64,000 bases of DNA, from IMG/VR virus record IMGVR_UViG_2623620505_000001; one strand, 5' to 3'. Below are positions 36,939 through 60,150 of the stretch, piece by piece. The position numbers were made by a program, and so were the translations under genes. The stretch's first letter is position 1; every line of letters begins with the position of its first letter. The notes beneath the pieces were generated by a model. That model was not told the origin of the DNA, did no database searches, and worked only from the letters and a program-made list of their open reading frames with translations. The DNA is from a virus (taxonomy: Duplodnaviria > Heunggongvirae > Uroviricota > Caudoviricetes).

Positions 36939-37239
36939 AATCGCAGCGCCATTAGGCGGAGATGCCATTATCGAATTTGATGATAATGAAGAAGTTTCCG
37001 GGCGTTTAAGCATTATCTCCGGTGACATTACCGAGGACATGATCGCTGAAGCCATAGCTGGGGCAAATCCCAATAGCTATATGGGATTCGTTAACACCCT
37101 TGATGCTCCCGCAAGTGATGTTCTCCGAACGCTGCATCTTTACGCTGGCTGGTTTGTTGATTGGCCAGCAGTAGATGGTGGCGATGAGGACGACGACGAC
37201 GATGATTTTGGTGATCATGTAGACCAGATCGTATATTGA
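36928..37239 (+). CDS. small protein with poly-Asp C-terminal tract
   Basis: 103 aa ending ...DGGDEDDDDDDFGDHVDQIVY; last gene of dar operon before terminator. Confidence 0.45.
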   Translation: MQIKIAAPLGGDAIIEFDDNEEVSGRLSIISGDITEDMIAEAIAGANPNSYMGFVNTLDAPASDVLRTLHLYAGWFVDWPAVDGGDEDDDDDDFGDHVDQIVY

Positions 37240-37242
37240 AGA

Positions 37243-37268
37243 AATCCCGCCAATTGGCGGGATTTTTA
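37243..37268. terminator. bidirectional rho-independent terminator between convergent operons
   Basis: AAATCCCGCC aatt GGCGGGATTT perfect hairpin flanked by A-run and T-run. Confidence 0.8.
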
Positions 37269-37270
37269 CC

Positions 37271-38365
37271 TCACGAGAAACTCTTTTCTGATGTCAGCCA
37301 ACAGTGCTCGTGCATATCTCTTGGTGGTTTTTCGACAAATGCCTCTTCAGCCACATCCTGCCAGGGGATTTGTTTAGCCCATTCAGTTATAGCGTTATGG
37401 TTTGCCGAGAATAACGGTATTGTATAGGCCTTCAGCCAGTCTAATGTGCTGGAGTTGTGTTTTTGAGCGTGATGTTTCGCATGGTGTTTGGCGATCACGA
37501 TCGTAGGCACTACCCATTTACTACCGTCAGTCATTGTGAAGTGCATATTACGGGGAACAGATGACTTTTCCATCAACTCCCGAATCCCTGGGAATTTCCC
37601 CAAGATCAATCGGCGATATTCATCGCTATTGCGCCCACCAAACTCTTTGGCTTTGAATTCAAGATATGCTTCAGAAACGAGAGGTGAATCCTCTGTGTTT
37701 AGAGTTATCGCCGTGAAAAAACCAGCAGGATTGTTTTTACTATGGGCCAACCGGTGATGCGAATCATAAAAGTACCCTTTCTCGCGTTCCGATGGTTTCG
37801 ACAGCAACAGCAGGCGCGAGTCATAATTGGTTAAATTGCCAGTTATCACTGCATGAGCGCGATCGCTGATTTCCGCCGAGTTAATAACGATGAAAAGATC
37901 GTGCGGTCCAGTAAAACCAGCCAGAGACTCTTCGTTATTCAGACAATAGGTTATATAGACGCATCCCCATGTTTCACTGATATGCACCAACCCTTTGTCA
38001 GGGTGTATTCTGAAATAATTGCCAAGAAAAGTGTGTTTTTGGGTAACTCGCTCCCAATAACGGAACATATAGTCAATTATTGTTTTTCGACAATCGTTAA
38101 TCGCAGGAGAAACAACCACTGTACGGGAACACGAATACAGTATTGTTTGCAGGATGCTAATCACTGCCACAATAGAGGTTTCCCCAATACCATGTGGTGT
38201 GGTGGCAGTGATTTTGGCTCCGGTGTTCTTTATCGCGTTAATAATTTTTGCTTGATGAGGTGTTAACTCAATATCAAGCAACTCTTTTGCTGCCAGTTCC
38301 CAATTGTCTTTATACCGTTCTATCAGTGCTAACCAGGCAGATTCATTCTGTATACGATTAATCAC
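37271..38365 (-). CDS. terminase large-subunit-like protein, degenerate paralog of PacB (ATPase motifs altered, C-terminal part absent)
   Basis: Seen by aligning to the 494-aa PacB in this window: shared YRYDW/ERYKDNW, TPTWQQ/TPHQ; Walker A GHGTGKS vs PHGIGETS; Walker [10 protein letters not shown] vs LFIVINSAE. Confidence 0.7.
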   Translation of the reverse strand: MINRIQNESAWLALIERYKDNWELAAKELLDIELTPHQAKIINAIKNTGAKITATTPHGIGETSIVAVISILQTILYSCSRTVVVSPAINDCRKTIIDYMFRYWERVTQKHTFLGNYFRIHPDKGLVHISETWGCVYITYCLNNEESLAGFTGPHDLFIVINSAEISDRAHAVITGNLTNYDSRLLLLSKPSEREKGYFYDSHHRLAHSKNNPAGFFTAITLNTEDSPLVSEAYLEFKAKEFGGRNSDEYRRLILGKFPGIRELMEKSSVPRNMHFTMTDGSKWVVPTIVIAKHHAKHHAQKHNSSTLDWLKAYTIPLFSANHNAITEWAKQIPWQDVAEEAFVEKPPRDMHEHCWLTSEKSFS

Positions 38366-39266
38366 TTTCCACCTCTTCCGTGGTGTTTTCTTGCAGTTCT
38401 GTTAATGCAGCACGACATAGGTTCCGGGCATTGGCTATAGCCACACTTTTGACTTCATCCGTCATCGTGCAGGTAATGTACTGATCGAGTTCTTCAGCGC
38501 GGATGATGCTTTTGCCAATCAGAAACTGTATTTGCCATAGCAGATCGGCATCCATAATCAGAATTTCTGCCGGGCCTTCAGGGCCAGCCGGGAAGGAAAC
38601 ATAAGACTGTTTGCCCAGGCCGACAACTCGACAACTTGCTTCAAGAATTGCGCGCTTGAGGTCTGACTTTATAACGGAAACAGGTTGATTTTCACCAGTG
38701 ATTACGCCGTTGACATGGAAAGGCATGTAGCTTGAAATACGCTCTACTTTCCACACGCCAGCAAGCGATCCTTCATGCAGCACAATGGGGGTAACCGCGA
38801 GTTTCATCTCACCATATAACTGCTGGCAGATAGCTGGATTGCTGAATACATCTAAAGGCTCACATTCAAACAGCGGCGCAATCTGCATGAGGTCCATCAT
38901 GGTCATCCCTGGGGTACGAGCAGTAATGAATTTGCGCATACCAGTATCCATTGCGCTCCAGATTGCTACACCATGCTTTTTGCTCACTTCTTCAGTAAAG
39001 CCAAGGTGGCACATGATGGTTTTTTCGATAGCCAGATCAGAGATAGAAACCTTTTCGCCAGGTACTCCATCATTATTGATGGTCACTTCGACACTCTGGC
39101 CATTACGTAGGCGGTATTGAATGGTTTTAGTATTTTGTGCTGTCATAGTCTTTTCTCTGCTTAAAAACTGATGTATTGCGTCTTCAGGTGGGTTAGGAAT
39201 GTTTTCCCACCAGCGAAAGCAATATCTCGTGGTGTTCTGTTCGTTAAAAACGCGTGCCATTGCCAA
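38358..39266 (-). CDS. hypothetical protein co-transcribed with ssb and the terminase-like gene (start uncertain; alternative ATG at 39146)
   Basis: 302-aa ORF; stop overlaps start of downstream gene. Confidence 0.45.
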   Translation of the reverse strand: MAMARVFNEQNTTRYCFRWWENIPNPPEDAIHQFLSREKTMTAQNTKTIQYRLRNGQSVEVTINNDGVPGEKVSISDLAIEKTIMCHLGFTEEVSKKHGVAIWSAMDTGMRKFITARTPGMTMMDLMQIAPLFECEPLDVFSNPAICQQLYGEMKLAVTPIVLHEGSLAGVWKVERISSYMPFHVNGVITGENQPVSVIKSDLKRAILEASCRVVGLGKQSYVSFPAGPEGPAEILIMDADLLWQIQFLIGKSIIRAEELDQYITCTMTDEVKSVAIANARNLCRAALTELQENTTEEVESD

Positions 39267-39348
39267 CTTTGGCGTTTTTTAGCGAGTTCGTGCTTTTGTT
39301 GGCGTTTGGACCACCGCTTTTCTTTCAGTCGTTTTTTACTCATAAACT

Positions 39349-39837
39349 CTAAAACGGAATATCGTCTTCAAAGTCCATTGGAGGTTCGTTATTGGCGCTG
39401 CTCTGAGGTTTGCCGCCACCGCTGTATTGCTGGTGGTTTTGAGGTTGGTTTGACTGCCCCCAGCCATTTGAGGACTGTGAATCGTCGCGGCGAGTGCCGA
39501 TCATTTGCATGGTGCCGCCCTGGCTGACGATAATTTCCGTCGTGTAACGTTCTACACCGGCGTCATCAGTCCACTTACGGGTTTTAAGTTTCCCTTCGAT
39601 GTAGAGCTGAGAACCTTTTCGTAAATACTCACTCGCAATTTCAGCAAGTTTTCCGAACAAAACGACTTTATGCCATTCTGTTTGCTCTTTCTGTTGGCCC
39701 GTTTGCTTATCGCGCCATGATTCATTCGTTGCGATGCTGAGTCTTCCGACTGCGCCGCCATTTGGTATATACCTGATCTCCGGGTCTTGCCCCAGGGTAC
39801 CAATCAGGATGACTTTGTTTACACCGCGTTGTGCCAC
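39349..39837 (-). CDS. ssb: single-stranded DNA-binding protein
   Basis: 162 aa; classic SSB sequence ...[30 protein letters not shown]... with Gly/Gln-rich tail ending DFEDDIPF. Confidence 0.95.
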
Positions 39838-39856: not shown

Positions 39857-39873
39857 AAATTAATTAGAGCAAT
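39857..39873 (-). promoter_or_regulatory. C1 operator-like site upstream of ssb operon
   Basis: Reverse strand ATTGCTCTAATTAATTT (1 mismatch). Confidence 0.6.
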
Positions 39874-57472: not shown

Positions 57473-58957
57473 TTATTCATTAAGCCATGCCAGAGCTTCA
57501 TCAACCTGCGCTTCGTCTTCGACGCTAAGCACTTCATCCTGGGGAACATAATCCGCCAGCATAGCGAAACAATATGTATCCCAATGGTCTGGTGAGTGCA
57601 GGTTGAGTTTTTTCTTCATATCCTCCTTACTCATCACCTTCCATTGACCTGCGGAGTTAATCCCTACAGGGATTTTCGACGCTTCCTCAATAGTTTCATT
57701 ACCCTTATCCAGTCTCATACGACCTGATTTTACGGCCTCTGCGGCTTGAACGTTGGCATAAGCACGCTTATCAAAGTACAGGCTCTTATCTTCACGGCTA
57801 TGCATCTTTTTACCCCAGCGTATACGCTGTACGGTAATACCATAATACTCGTACATCAGATCCGCCGTTGCTTTACCCAGGCCATCGCCGTCTATCGCTA
57901 TGGTGATATTTGGGAATCGCTCAGGATTACATTCTGCGAAAATTTTGGCGGCAAGCTGCGTTTCTGTAACGTCTGTGTATTCCAGCATTCGATAGTTGAT
58001 TACACGGCGTTTATTTCTCTGGCCGGACACCATCATGATATTGATAACGGACTTATCCCGTCCCGTACCACCAGCAACGTCCACACATGCAAGCCAGCCC
58101 CATCCTTTGGCAATCTTGACTTTCCGCCGCGTCGCACGTTCAACCTCATCACGTCCAAGAAGGAAGCCATCCTGTGATTTAGGGAATAGTCCGCGTACTT
58201 TAATCATGTACATAGGGTTATCACGCCCGCCGTACTCCGCCAGCTTCATTTTGATAAATGCTGGCGTTACCAGCGGTGATTCCTCACTGTTAAGCGTGAT
58301 CGCCGTATAAACGCCATCAGGGTTACCAGGACGCTTGGCCAGTTTATGGTGAGTATCGTAGAAATAGCCGCTTGGGCGTGTAGGCTGTGACAGTAATAAG
58401 ATGCGGTTATCCTGTCCGGTAAGAGCACCAGTGATGATACCGAAAGCTCTATCACTGACACCGGAGGCTTCATCGATAATATACAGAAGATGATCTGCGT
58501 GTTCACCGGCGAGAGCTTCTTCACTTCCCAGACGAAAGCCCTTCGGTACTACAGTCCATACACCTTTACCAGTAACCTCATAGAAAGCGGTTTCTGTCAG
58601 AACAAAATAATCAGCAAGCCATGGAAAACGGCTGGTGGCAGTAGCCCAGTTTATCTTGATGTACTTGAATATACCGGTCATTACCTGCTGAATTTTGTTC
58701 GCAACGATAATGGCGCGGGCACCGGGATACATGATTATGAACAACATGATCATGATAGAAGTCATGTCTGATTTCCCGGTACCGTGACCAGACGAAACAG
58801 ATGTCTTGCTACCCTGTTCCTGCACAGACTCAATAATCAGATCCTGCTGCCAGGTAGGTGTTTTGCCGAACAAAACATCAGCGGCCGCAATCCAGTCATA
58901 ACGATATAGCGCCACCAGCTCGCGCCAACGTGGATCCGTTACGCAACTTCTGGCCAT
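57473..58957 (-). CDS. pacB: terminase large subunit PacB
   Basis: 494 aa; Walker A SGHGTGKS, Walker [10 protein letters not shown]; downstream of pacA. Confidence 0.9.
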
Positions 58958-60150
58958 TAATCATCATCCCCGTATAGCTTGCGGGTAACTTCTTCGTCTT
59001 CCTCCTCGTCTTCGTCCAGGTCTTGTTCCAGCCATGGGTCGTTTGATACACCTTCAGTATCAACATCTCCATAACCGCCTGTATCAACAATATCGGCGAT
59101 TTCTTCCCTACGCTGCTCAATCCACAATGCGGCATCGGCGCGGCGGTTGGCGGCCCGTTCTCGCGCAACTTTGTCCAGATCTTCAAGAGAAGGGCCACCG
59201 ACGGCTGTTTGCCTTTCCTCATCATCGGTATTGGTCTTAGGAGCACGCAGATCGGCTTTGATTTGCTCCAGCATCAGGGGCGGTACTTTCCCTCCATGCG
59301 CCTCGATGAATTCAGCTGCCTCCAGCACTGACCAGTTGTTTTCACGCTTTCGTTCGTATGCCAGCTTAACAATGCCAGCTTGCCCCATAGACAAAGCGTG
59401 CTTTTCCGCCTCCCGGCTTTCTTTTCGATAGTTATTCCGGATGCTGTAAATGGTGTTGATCAGGCTGCTTATCTGCGCGGAACAGCTGTTTAGCATGCTC
59501 GCGATACGGTATTCAGGCGGAGTTCCTTCATCATCGTCTTTTTGCTGATCGCGCATTTCCTGAACCAAGCGAATACACGTATCCCTGGCGTTCTCCAGCA
59601 TAAGGAGATGAGAGAGAGACTTTTCCAGAAGAGTGGTTTCCAGAACATCAGCCCCGGACCGACGCAACATAGCGCGCGCGGCCTTCCGCGCTTCAACGTT
59701 ATCTATCAGGTAATCGCCAGCTTCGAATTCAAAGCGTTCACCATCATCATCCAGGGTGTCGCGTTCCAGGCGATCACGTAAGGTCCGGTGGGCGCGGGTG
59801 ATCACGTCATGATCATCAGAACGATCATTTATGCGCTTATTCTGGCGCTTCGCGTTCTCGACTGCGGCACTGACAACAGCATTAACTCTTTGTTTTTCAG
59901 CCATTTCAGCCACAATGTGATCACCTGCACGTTGATCATTAGCGTGATCAATGATCATGCTTTTTAGTGGTTTTCTGACAGGCTTATTTGGCTTACGGCT
60001 GTCCGCTGTTCCGGTGTCTTCTTTGAATGCACGGAGATAACGACGTGCGGTGTTTGGGTTGAGATTAAACTCGGCGGCATATTGTGCGATGGTGTAACCA
60101 CCATCTCGCGCCAGGCGAGCAAAATTCTTCTTGTGATCGTCCCAGGTCAC
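58957..60150 (-). CDS. pacA: terminase small/pac-recognition subunit PacA (GTG start)
   Basis: 397 aa, acidic C-terminus; contains GATC-rich pac site. Confidence 0.85.
59770..59960. other. pac: pac packaging site (two clusters of TGATCA/G hexamers with Dam GATC sites)
   Basis: Seen: TGATCA at 59799, 59810, CGATCA 59823; TGATCA at 59918, 59933, 59945, 59952. Matches known P1 pac organisation. Confidence 0.75.

Follow-up and report, generated by a model that had tools for sequence, protein, structure and literature searches.

The stretch of viral DNA analysed here (64,000 nt; IMG/VR record IMGVR_UViG_2623620505_000001), hereafter the window, is 95-99% identical in the region considered to the P1-like phage-plasmids (Punavirus) of Escherichia coli and Salmonella, and carries on its minus strand, between hxr and ssb, a gene of 364 amino acids (aa) related to that of the large terminase subunit PacB. 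We conclude with high confidence that this is an intact gene under purifying selection encoding a pseudo-terminase, i.e., a protein in which the ATPase fold has been kept, every catalytic element has been lost and the nuclease domain has been replaced. The gene is the last of the ssb unit and is coupled to isaA, together with which it forms an accessory cassette present in about a quarter of P1-type phage-plasmids. Judging from these features, the product is probably a non-catalytic terminase mimic rather than a packaging enzyme. In the literature on P1-like phages, we found no description of a dead paralog of PacB or of another terminase.

Similarity to PacB and loss of catalytic residues

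A first-pass annotation, made from the letters of the window without database searches, had placed the gene at 37271-38365(-) (364 aa) and an upstream neighbour at 38358-39266(-) (302 aa as the longest open reading frame, ORF), and had proposed the former to be a degenerate paralog of the ATPase half of PacB; the coordinates, the ORFs and the kinship were all borne out. BLASTP comparison with the PacB of the same window revealed 35% identity over 266 aa with an E value of 1e-53, and the similarity is thus far above chance. Profile and structure searches agreed with this assignment, as the paralog was matched by the PHROG 2 profile "terminase large subunit" (E 4.5e-9), and an AlphaFold model built from 29 sequences (mean predicted local distance difference test score, pLDDT, 87; predicted template modelling score, pTM, 0.83) had as its best Foldseek matches in the PDB the terminase ATPase domains of Sf6, P74-26, D6E and T4 (E 1e-9 to 1e-6). 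PHROG 5902, a family without functional annotation, covered the protein end to end (E 1e-186) and was also matched by two short degenerate relatives, P0012 and P0015. No match was obtained for the paralog in searches of Pfam, NCBIfam and PADLOC (E up to 1), and a sequence search of the PDB returned nothing significant. The bona fide large subunit PacB of the window likewise had no Pfam match at E up to 0.01, and P0010, a close PacB relative, had only sub-threshold Pfam scores for Terminase_3 and Terminase_6N, indicating that PacB-type terminases are poorly covered by Pfam.

Alignment with PacB showed the nature of the degeneration. The Walker A region of the paralog reads TTPHGIGETS, with Glu in place of the Lys; the Walker B region reads DLFIVINSAE, in which FIVINSAE stands for YIIDEASG and Asn-Ser replaces Asp-Glu; and motif III is SKPS(E), as compared with SQPT in PacB. 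Both Walker motifs are aligned without a gap, and the replacements listed in the first-pass annotation hold. The alignment ends at about residue 272, and the nuclease half of PacB (about residues 275-494) is absent. The annotation had described the missing part as the C-terminal third, which understates the change, for the whole nuclease domain, about 45% of PacB, is missing and a different domain of about 95 aa has been gained. Among six features defining a TerL protein of the PacB type, the paralog retains solely the ATPase fold; it lacks the Walker A Lys-Ser/Thr, the Walker B acidic pair, motif III with its Arg, the nuclease domain and a place beside the small-subunit gene. With five of the six lacking, it should not be annotated as a large terminase subunit, the label that automatic annotation has given to the gene in some P1-like records (MH422554, MH445380).

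Word-indexed protein searches gave few relatives, and an exhaustive hidden Markov model search of 1.84 billion representatives was required, by which 1202 relatives were collected. Motif columns were read in an alignment of the 139 relatives of at least 220 aa. In 15 of these, neither the Walker A Lys nor the Walker B acids were present; all 15 were 228-444 aa long and had no nuclease domain, whereas the relatives of at least 450 aa all retained the Walker A Lys or the Walker B acids, nearly all of them both. Ten scored as non-canonical at Walker B only through EE or a similar pair, and five deviated or aligned poorly at the P-loop. None of the 15 degenerate relatives, among which are about a dozen short proteins from metagenomes, had an acidic pair at Walker B, and position 62, that of the P-loop Lys, was occupied in this group by E, R, H, M, T, I, C or N. 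A column census revealed 21 columns in which the degenerate group has lost a residue kept by at least 85% of canonical PacB-like proteins, including S56, G57, H58, T60, K62 and S63 in the P-loop, D161, E162 and S164 in Walker B, Q190 and T192 in motif III, and R194, K98 and Q91. By comparison, 35 structural columns were kept, among them the adenine-recognising Gln38, the P-loop glycines and the GYFY motif, with Q38, G59 and G61 being invariant. It was also noticed that Arg251 (encoded at about 37613-37615 in the window) is invariant in the 11 aligned degenerate members and is M, K, I or N in canonical PacB-like terminases; as read from this alignment, the constraint is specific to the degenerate clade.

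The short members end directly after the LG.FP motif that closes the ATPase domain, which indicates that they are real ATPase-domain-only proteins and not fragments. In a neighbour-joining tree (without support values), most degenerate members fell into one clade apart from the canonical PacBs, and identities between paralogs were similar to those between paralogs and PacBs; a single origin of the degenerate group is likely, not proven. Alleles 52% and 47% identical to the window protein, likewise degenerate, were found in related phage-plasmids, and these have kept the length, the architecture and the IsaA partner.

In place of the nuclease half stands the phage-specific domain mentioned above, which is unrelated to PacB and whose residues 268-350 form a beta-hairpin and three helices. 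No fold in the PDB matched it at an E value of 0.001 or better, searches of Pfam and PADLOC returned no match, and a BFVD structure search retrieved uncharacterised phage proteins only; it also matched the C-terminus of PHROG 17928. This domain is the most constrained part of the paralog, the ratio of nonsynonymous to synonymous substitution rates (dN/dS) being 0.08-0.18 as against 0.29-0.41 in the N-domain. Two alleles from related elements, L003 (3988-5082) and L010 (8001-9101), are mosaic, with dS 1.45 and dN 0.41 in the N-domain and dS 0.21 and dN 0.016 in the C-terminal domain, a difference large enough to point to recombination at the domain border. The domain was also encountered in two other arrangements. 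It stands alone as the 123-aa protein P0104 directly upstream of an H-NS-like gene (L014, 2562-2933), and it is located at the N-terminus of P0027, before a degenerate ATPase domain (L015, 8001-8741); the P0027 gene looks truncated and is followed by about 1.7 kb without called genes.

The ssb-isaA unit, its carriage and its neighbours

In the window, ddrB and hxr (plus strand) converge on the 364-aa ORF, the 302-aa ORF and ssb (all minus strand), which are followed by lyz. The 302-aa neighbour belongs to the same unit, as the first-pass annotation had it; its description there as an unknown protein does not hold, since it is the ortholog of P1 IsaA, to which it is 93% identical. The match to PHROG 2326 begins at residue 44 of the long ORF, and the true start of isaA is probably the ATG at 39146, where the protein begins with MTAQNT. 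As this is where the family starts, the long N-termini of the annotated 320-aa P1 IsaA and of the 302-aa window ORF, which reach into the leader between ssb and isaA, are probably annotation artefacts. The isaA stop codon overlaps the GTG start of the paralog by 8 nt, and a GAGGTG Shine-Dalgarno sequence lies five bases upstream of this start, inside the 3′ end of isaA; the overlap and the Shine-Dalgarno sequence together indicate translational coupling from isaA to the paralog. In each of the five loci examined from E. coli-type elements (the window, L003, L004, L010 and L019), an IsaA-like gene lay next to the paralog and overlapped it; identity to the window IsaA fell to 46-48% in three of them, including L003 and L010. 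IsaA had no match in Pfam, NCBIfam or PADLOC (E up to 1), and its profile found no solved relative among PDB sequences. Two candidate identities were discarded, namely that IsaA is itself a paralog of PacA or PacB, making up a "pseudo-pacase" pair (hhalign probability about 0.1%), and that it is a Ref-like nuclease (no similarity).

Upstream of ssb, a 130-bp control region is 97% identical to that of P1 and includes an identical C1 operator, and a consensus terminator scan found no minus-strand terminator-like site between ssb and the paralog. The proposal that the gene lies in the ssb unit behind a C1 operator, outside the packaging module, is thus upheld, and the simplest reading is one C1-repressed unit, ssb-isaA-paralog, whose co-transcription and early timing are deduced from the sequence and the P1 annotation. 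Directly after the stop codon of the paralog there is a perfect 10-bp inverted repeat forming a hairpin with a stem of 10-12 bp, which the consensus scan had missed; it was spotted on visual inspection, and folding energies of -20.7 and -19.3 kcal/mol for the two strands (z about -5 for each) bear it out. This hairpin is likely a bidirectional terminator ending the unit. The positions of these features are collected in Table 1. Within the leader between ssb and isaA, there is also an ORF (39161-39343, minus strand) for a very basic 60-aa protein (MSKKRLKEKRWSKRQQKHELAKKRQ...) without a PHROG match. The pacA-pacB genes (57473-60150) are about 19 kb away from the 364-aa gene, which sits behind ssb and isaA.

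Table 1. Positions in the window of the pseudo-terminase gene, its domains and associated features
Feature	Position	Strand	Basis
Pseudo-terminase gene, 364 aa, GTG start	37271..38365	-	ORF, PacB similarity, PHROG, model, Foldseek, dN/dS
N-terminal TerL-ATPase-like domain, aa 1 to ~265	37571..38365	-	Walker A PHGIGETS, Walker B FIVINSAE, motif III SKPS
C-terminal domain, aa ~268-364, beta-hairpin and three helices, disordered tail	37274..37564	-	Model pLDDT 79
GC-rich hairpin AAATCCCGCC-AATT-GGCGGGATTT, T-rich tails on both strands	37237..37273	.	Between convergent hxr and paralog
isaA ortholog, 262 aa from probable ATG at 39146	38358..39146	-	Longest ORF 302 aa, to 39266
Leader between ssb and isaA, conserved in relatives	39147..39348	-	
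ssb, first gene of the transcription unit	39349..39837	-	ORF and P1 annotation
C1 repressor operator ATTGCTCTAATTAATTT, identical to P1 Ossb/Op21, overlapping annotated ssb promoters	39857..39873	-	P1 annotation, alignment
pacB, intact large terminase subunit (494 aa), reference for the paralog	57473..58957	-	BLASTP and motif alignment
pacA, small subunit, PacB partner; candidate target of the paralog if it acts on packaging	58957..60150	-	

Phage P1 itself has no such gene. Its similarity to the window breaks off at the end of hxr (37237) and resumes with isaA (at 38342 by blastn and at 38357 by a more sensitive search), and P1 has isaB and IS1 in place of window positions 37238-38341 (blastn) or 37238-38356 (more sensitive search). 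It had been speculated that the 364-aa gene might be the uninterrupted form of the P1 genes flanking IS1, isaA and isaB. However, IsaA corresponds to the neighbouring ORF and is intact in both phages, IsaB and the 364-aa protein are not similar (best BLASTP E 0.052), and blastn and tblastn searches of P1 for a remnant of the paralog found none, the tblastn matches being to pacB only. Because IsaB is unrelated and no remnant is left in P1, the idea is wrong for the paralog. The interval between hxr and ssb is a documented hypervariable cargo region of P1-like elements, RD-2 or "region 2" (PMC6906374, PMC9603915). The G+C content across the paralog (window 37750-38500) is 0.42-0.45, as compared with 0.48-0.55 in the flanking ddrB and lyz/pro regions.

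Carriage is patchy, at about 26-29% of P1-type elements. The window-type gene was present in 99 of 5426 complete E. coli genomes, as against 374 records with a PacB of at least 90% identity, and in PLSDB the paralog was found in 119 plasmids, as against about 407 with PacB and 335 with IsaA; 34 more plasmids carry a 64%-identical allele. A copy 100% identical to that of the window is found on the 95.6-kb plasmid NZ_CP039843.1. The cluster formed at 90% identity holds 851 member sequences. All 100 copies from complete E. coli genomes are full length, and dN/dS between the window paralog and close alleles is 0.27-0.31 at a dS of about 0.15, as compared with 0.11-0.13 for IsaA and 0.10-0.14 for ssb. 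These sequence comparisons indicate that the paralog is under purifying selection as a non-enzyme and is not a relic. The more distant degenerate members, where the contig was long enough to tell, lie on contigs of 84-94 kb with pacA-pacB and a P1/P7-type C1 repressor, as in L006, L010 and L016. For the same pairs of elements, the PacB N-domains are 60-77% identical and the paralogs 33-44%; any paralog shares 34-41% identity with any PacB, the resident one included. Taken together, these values point to an old duplication followed by fast evolution in which the paralog did not co-vary with the PacB of its own element; its N-domain has changed at about twice the rate of that of PacB. A scan of GTDB genomes used the pattern GYFYDSHH, which is common to PacB, and therefore returned mostly canonical PacB genes; the paralog was carried only by L021 and L022. 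The latter is a 7-kb contig (JAFAFU010000075.1) of a metagenome-assembled genome labelled "Bacillota bacterium" with a 99%-identical E. coli-type paralog, and is most likely mis-binned or contaminating.

The neighbours of the cassette differ among related elements. In L003, L004 and L010, the order is an integrase gene, two small genes, a dUTPase gene, a Tad2-like gene and then the isaA-paralog cassette; the Tad2-like gene encodes a domain resembling the Thoeris anti-defence protein Tad2 (Pfam E about 1e-21 in L003 and L010). A Tad2-like gene is located immediately upstream of the cassette in L003, L010 and L019. In L019 (E. albertii plasmid NZ_CP043260.1), where this region shares 95% identity with the window, the Tad2-like gene stands between ssb and isaA, which is followed by the paralog, and comparison of L019 4914-5615 with window 39136-39143 revealed the Tad2-like (DUF2829) gene as a clean indel at the start of isaA, at the 3′ edge of the leader. 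That the gene is cleanly present or absent, the surrounding sequence being 95% identical, suggests that the ssb operon has a slot for genes at the start of isaA. In L006 (9336-10792), a 263-aa ATPase-only degenerate paralog overlaps by 4 nt the stop of a gene for a Ref-like RecA-dependent nuclease (Pfam E 8e-35), which stands where the isaA-like gene is otherwise found; Ref-like genes are also located near the paralog in L012 and L015. The paralog follows a radical SAM gene in L005, and has small uncharacterised genes as neighbours in L012.

Possible roles of the pseudo-terminase

Since the protein should be unable to drive DNA packaging or to cut DNA, it would have to act by binding. Recent work on immune sensors suggests what it might bind. 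The terminase ATPase domain suffices to activate Avs2 and Upx, SeAvs3 senses the active-site residues of terminase together with bound ATP, and the EcAvs2 interface is sealed by a bridging ATP that touches the terminase-bound ATP (PMC13601566, a 2026 study). In the same study, T4 vs.8, a stand-alone terminase-ATPase-like protein with intact motifs, triggered EcAvs2, and the authors considered that such proteins may be anti-defence factors (PMC13601566). We tentatively favour, though well short of an even chance, the view that the paralog is a terminase look-alike used in conflict with the host, with Avs or Upx sensors as predicted examples of the opponents. The preference rests on the hypervariable region in which the gene lies, the hxr-ddrB antirestriction operon adjoining it on its other side, the Tad2-like neighbours, the patchy carriage, the fast N-domain and the lower G+C content. 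In the absence of the C1 repressor, the protein would be produced early, ahead of the late-expressed PacB; it would tie up host factors by which the terminase ATPase domain is recognised (e.g., Avs1-3 or Upx sensors) and would withhold the ATP-loaded active site that the sensors read, so that the alarm raised later by PacB would be blunted. In a minimum version, the lost active site would simply keep an early terminase-fold protein from raising the alarm, i.e., would make it invisible. IsaA and the C-terminal domain may be partner or adaptor parts. The suggestion of the first-pass annotation that the protein is a regulator or a decoy thus remains live. The more specific proposal, that the whole family of dead-terminase mimics serves with IsaA as early decoys for the terminase sensors Avs1-3 and Upx, occupying the pocket of the sensor and presenting no ATP-loaded site, is speculative and, as it stands, unlikely.

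Several points weigh against a role in conflict with host sensors. If the sensors bind only an ATP-loaded site, the paralog may not bind them at all, in which case "stealth" and not "decoy" would be the proper term. Upx is reported to bind an unfolded ATPase core regardless of catalysis, and the paralog itself might trigger Upx. The association with Tad2 is not general, as the neighbours in L006, L005 and L012 differ outside the E. coli-type elements, and proximity to anti-defence genes is circumstantial. PADLOC (E up to 1) gave no defence-family match for the paralog, IsaA or the C-terminal domain, and an operon shared with ssb fits a role in DNA metabolism equally well.

A close rival, to which we give only slightly less probability, is an effect on packaging. 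It would arise if the dead domain keeps the contact surfaces of PacB and, as a modulator or poison subunit, attaches to PacA, PacB, the portal or the complex at the pac site, thereby delaying cleavage of the phage's own pac site until late or blocking the pacase of a competing P1-like phage or satellite, with IsaA as a specificity or self-immunity partner. The only detectable homology of the protein is to PacB, including the N-terminal DPRW..Y..W helix region, and the non-catalytic family motifs EE.LAG, GYFYDSHH, SPLV, YGGR and LG.FP are kept; in phage lambda, the N-terminus of the large subunit is the part that binds the small subunit. Every paralog-bearing element with enough sequence also has pacA-pacB-c1, the fast divergence of the N-domain and the mosaic at the domain border fit a phage-phage arms race, and the TERi system of Listeria prophages offers a precedent (bioRxiv 10.1101/2025.02.27.640495). 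On the other hand, P1 packages normally without the paralog and can dispense with isaA and isaB (PMC10695390), which places the paralog outside the core timing mechanism; identity to the resident PacB does not co-vary, IsaA has no similarity to PacA or PacB, and with a C1-repressed promoter the protein should be absent in lysogens, where TERi-type exclusion acts. A second close rival, less probable again, is that the protein is an exapted DNA-metabolism factor, serving without catalysis as a scaffold that binds DNA or proteins and cooperates with SSB, IsaA and recombination proteins in early replication or recombination. The shared unit with ssb, the coupling to a Ref-like nuclease gene in L006 with Ref-like genes near the paralog in two other loci, and the dUTPase and integrase genes upstream in the same orientation in L003 and L010 are in keeping with such a role, and the invariant Q38 and P-loop glycines may allow nucleotide or DNA binding to survive. 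Proximity carries little weight, however, because ref, ssb and the like are present in all P1-like elements anyway; the cassette is dispensable and patchy, a dN/dS of 0.3, as against 0.1 for ssb and IsaA, would be unusual for a core factor, and no DNA-binding domain was detected (by a Pfam search of the paralog and a PDB fold search with the C-terminal domain).

That the protein is still an enzyme, a non-canonical NTPase or nucleotide binder using substitute residues, is in our view very improbable. Residues that might serve in this way are Arg251, the Lys that is displaced in P0007, and an Asp or Asn one position past the site of the missing Walker B Asp. In favour of this stand the invariant Q38, G59 and G61 and an R251 whose invariance is confined to the degenerate group; in addition, the site of the former Glu is occupied by D, N, Q or H in most degenerate proteins, and P0007 reads GIGHKS and IVMDAA, with Lys and Asp each one position off. 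Yet no basic P-loop residue is conserved across the group, and nothing is left of the metal-binding Asp, motif III or Arg194; different members have different substitutions, which argues for relaxed constraint and not for a new conserved site. The least probable explanation, to which we give hardly any credence, is a decaying, functionless duplicate of pacB. The loss of the catalytic residues and of the nuclease domain, and the absence of the gene from P1 and about 70% of P1-type elements, would agree with decay, but it is contradicted by the conservation data, as the frame is intact in 100 of 100 E. coli records, dN/dS is 0.27-0.31 for close alleles and about 0.1 in the C-terminal domain, length, architecture and IsaA partner persist in alleles of 47-52% identity, the model shows a good fold with high confidence, and the signals for translation and coupling are present.

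Terminase is the most conserved enzyme of tailed phages and a main "pattern" for NLR-like (nucleotide-binding, leucine-rich repeat) immunity, as represented by Avs and Upx, and here a conserved phage family keeps the terminase fold and yet sheds the residues needed for catalysis and for immune recognition. If the decoy proposal is true, the phage would be imitating its own conserved "pattern" protein in order to blind pattern-recognition immunity. The finding opens a test between mimics of a phage's own proteins acting against pattern recognition and dead motor subunits that regulate or sabotage packaging. It also corrects the "terminase large subunit" labels in databases, clarifies the isaA/IS1/isaB region of the P1 map, and flags IsaA and the small phage-specific domain as partners worth study.

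Comparison with known systems

PacB of the same element is the nearest characterised relative, with a homologous N-terminal ATPase fold and the Q-motif, P-loop glycines and non-catalytic family motifs in common. The paralog differs from it in lacking the Walker A Lys/Ser, the Walker B Asp/Glu, the motif III Gln/Thr, Arg194 and the nuclease, in having an extra C-terminal domain, in its location by isaA in the C1-controlled ssb unit and not by pacA, in being dispensable (P1 lacks it), and in evolving about twice as fast. PHROG 5902, to which the window protein, P0012 and P0015 belong by profile match, and PHROG 20197 are bare clusters, for which no function, motif analysis or link to terminase is recorded in the library used.

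The TERi system (TerI, anti-TerI1 and anti-TerI2) of Listeria prophages is similar in being an accessory module of temperate phages that acts on the terminase complex without being part of packaging; by description, TerI is small, unrelated to the large subunit and expressed in lysogens, whereas the window cassette stands behind a repressor-controlled early promoter (bioRxiv 10.1101/2025.02.27.640495). T4 vs.8 resembles the paralog in being a nuclease-less phage paralog of the terminase ATPase domain that is encoded outside the packaging module and is uncharacterised. It differs in keeping Walker A (GRQSGKS) and Walker B (YIIDEP), in its T4-type and not PacB-type origin, and in having neither a C-terminal domain nor an IsaA-like partner; membership in the same family was excluded, as hhalign against the PacB/paralog profile gave a probability of 0.9% (E 0.06) and vs.8 falls into PHROG 1488, not 5902. 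By comparison with vs.8, the protein described here can be regarded as a pseudoenzyme among stand-alone terminase-ATPase paralogs, one that has gained a domain and is accompanied by a conserved partner gene.

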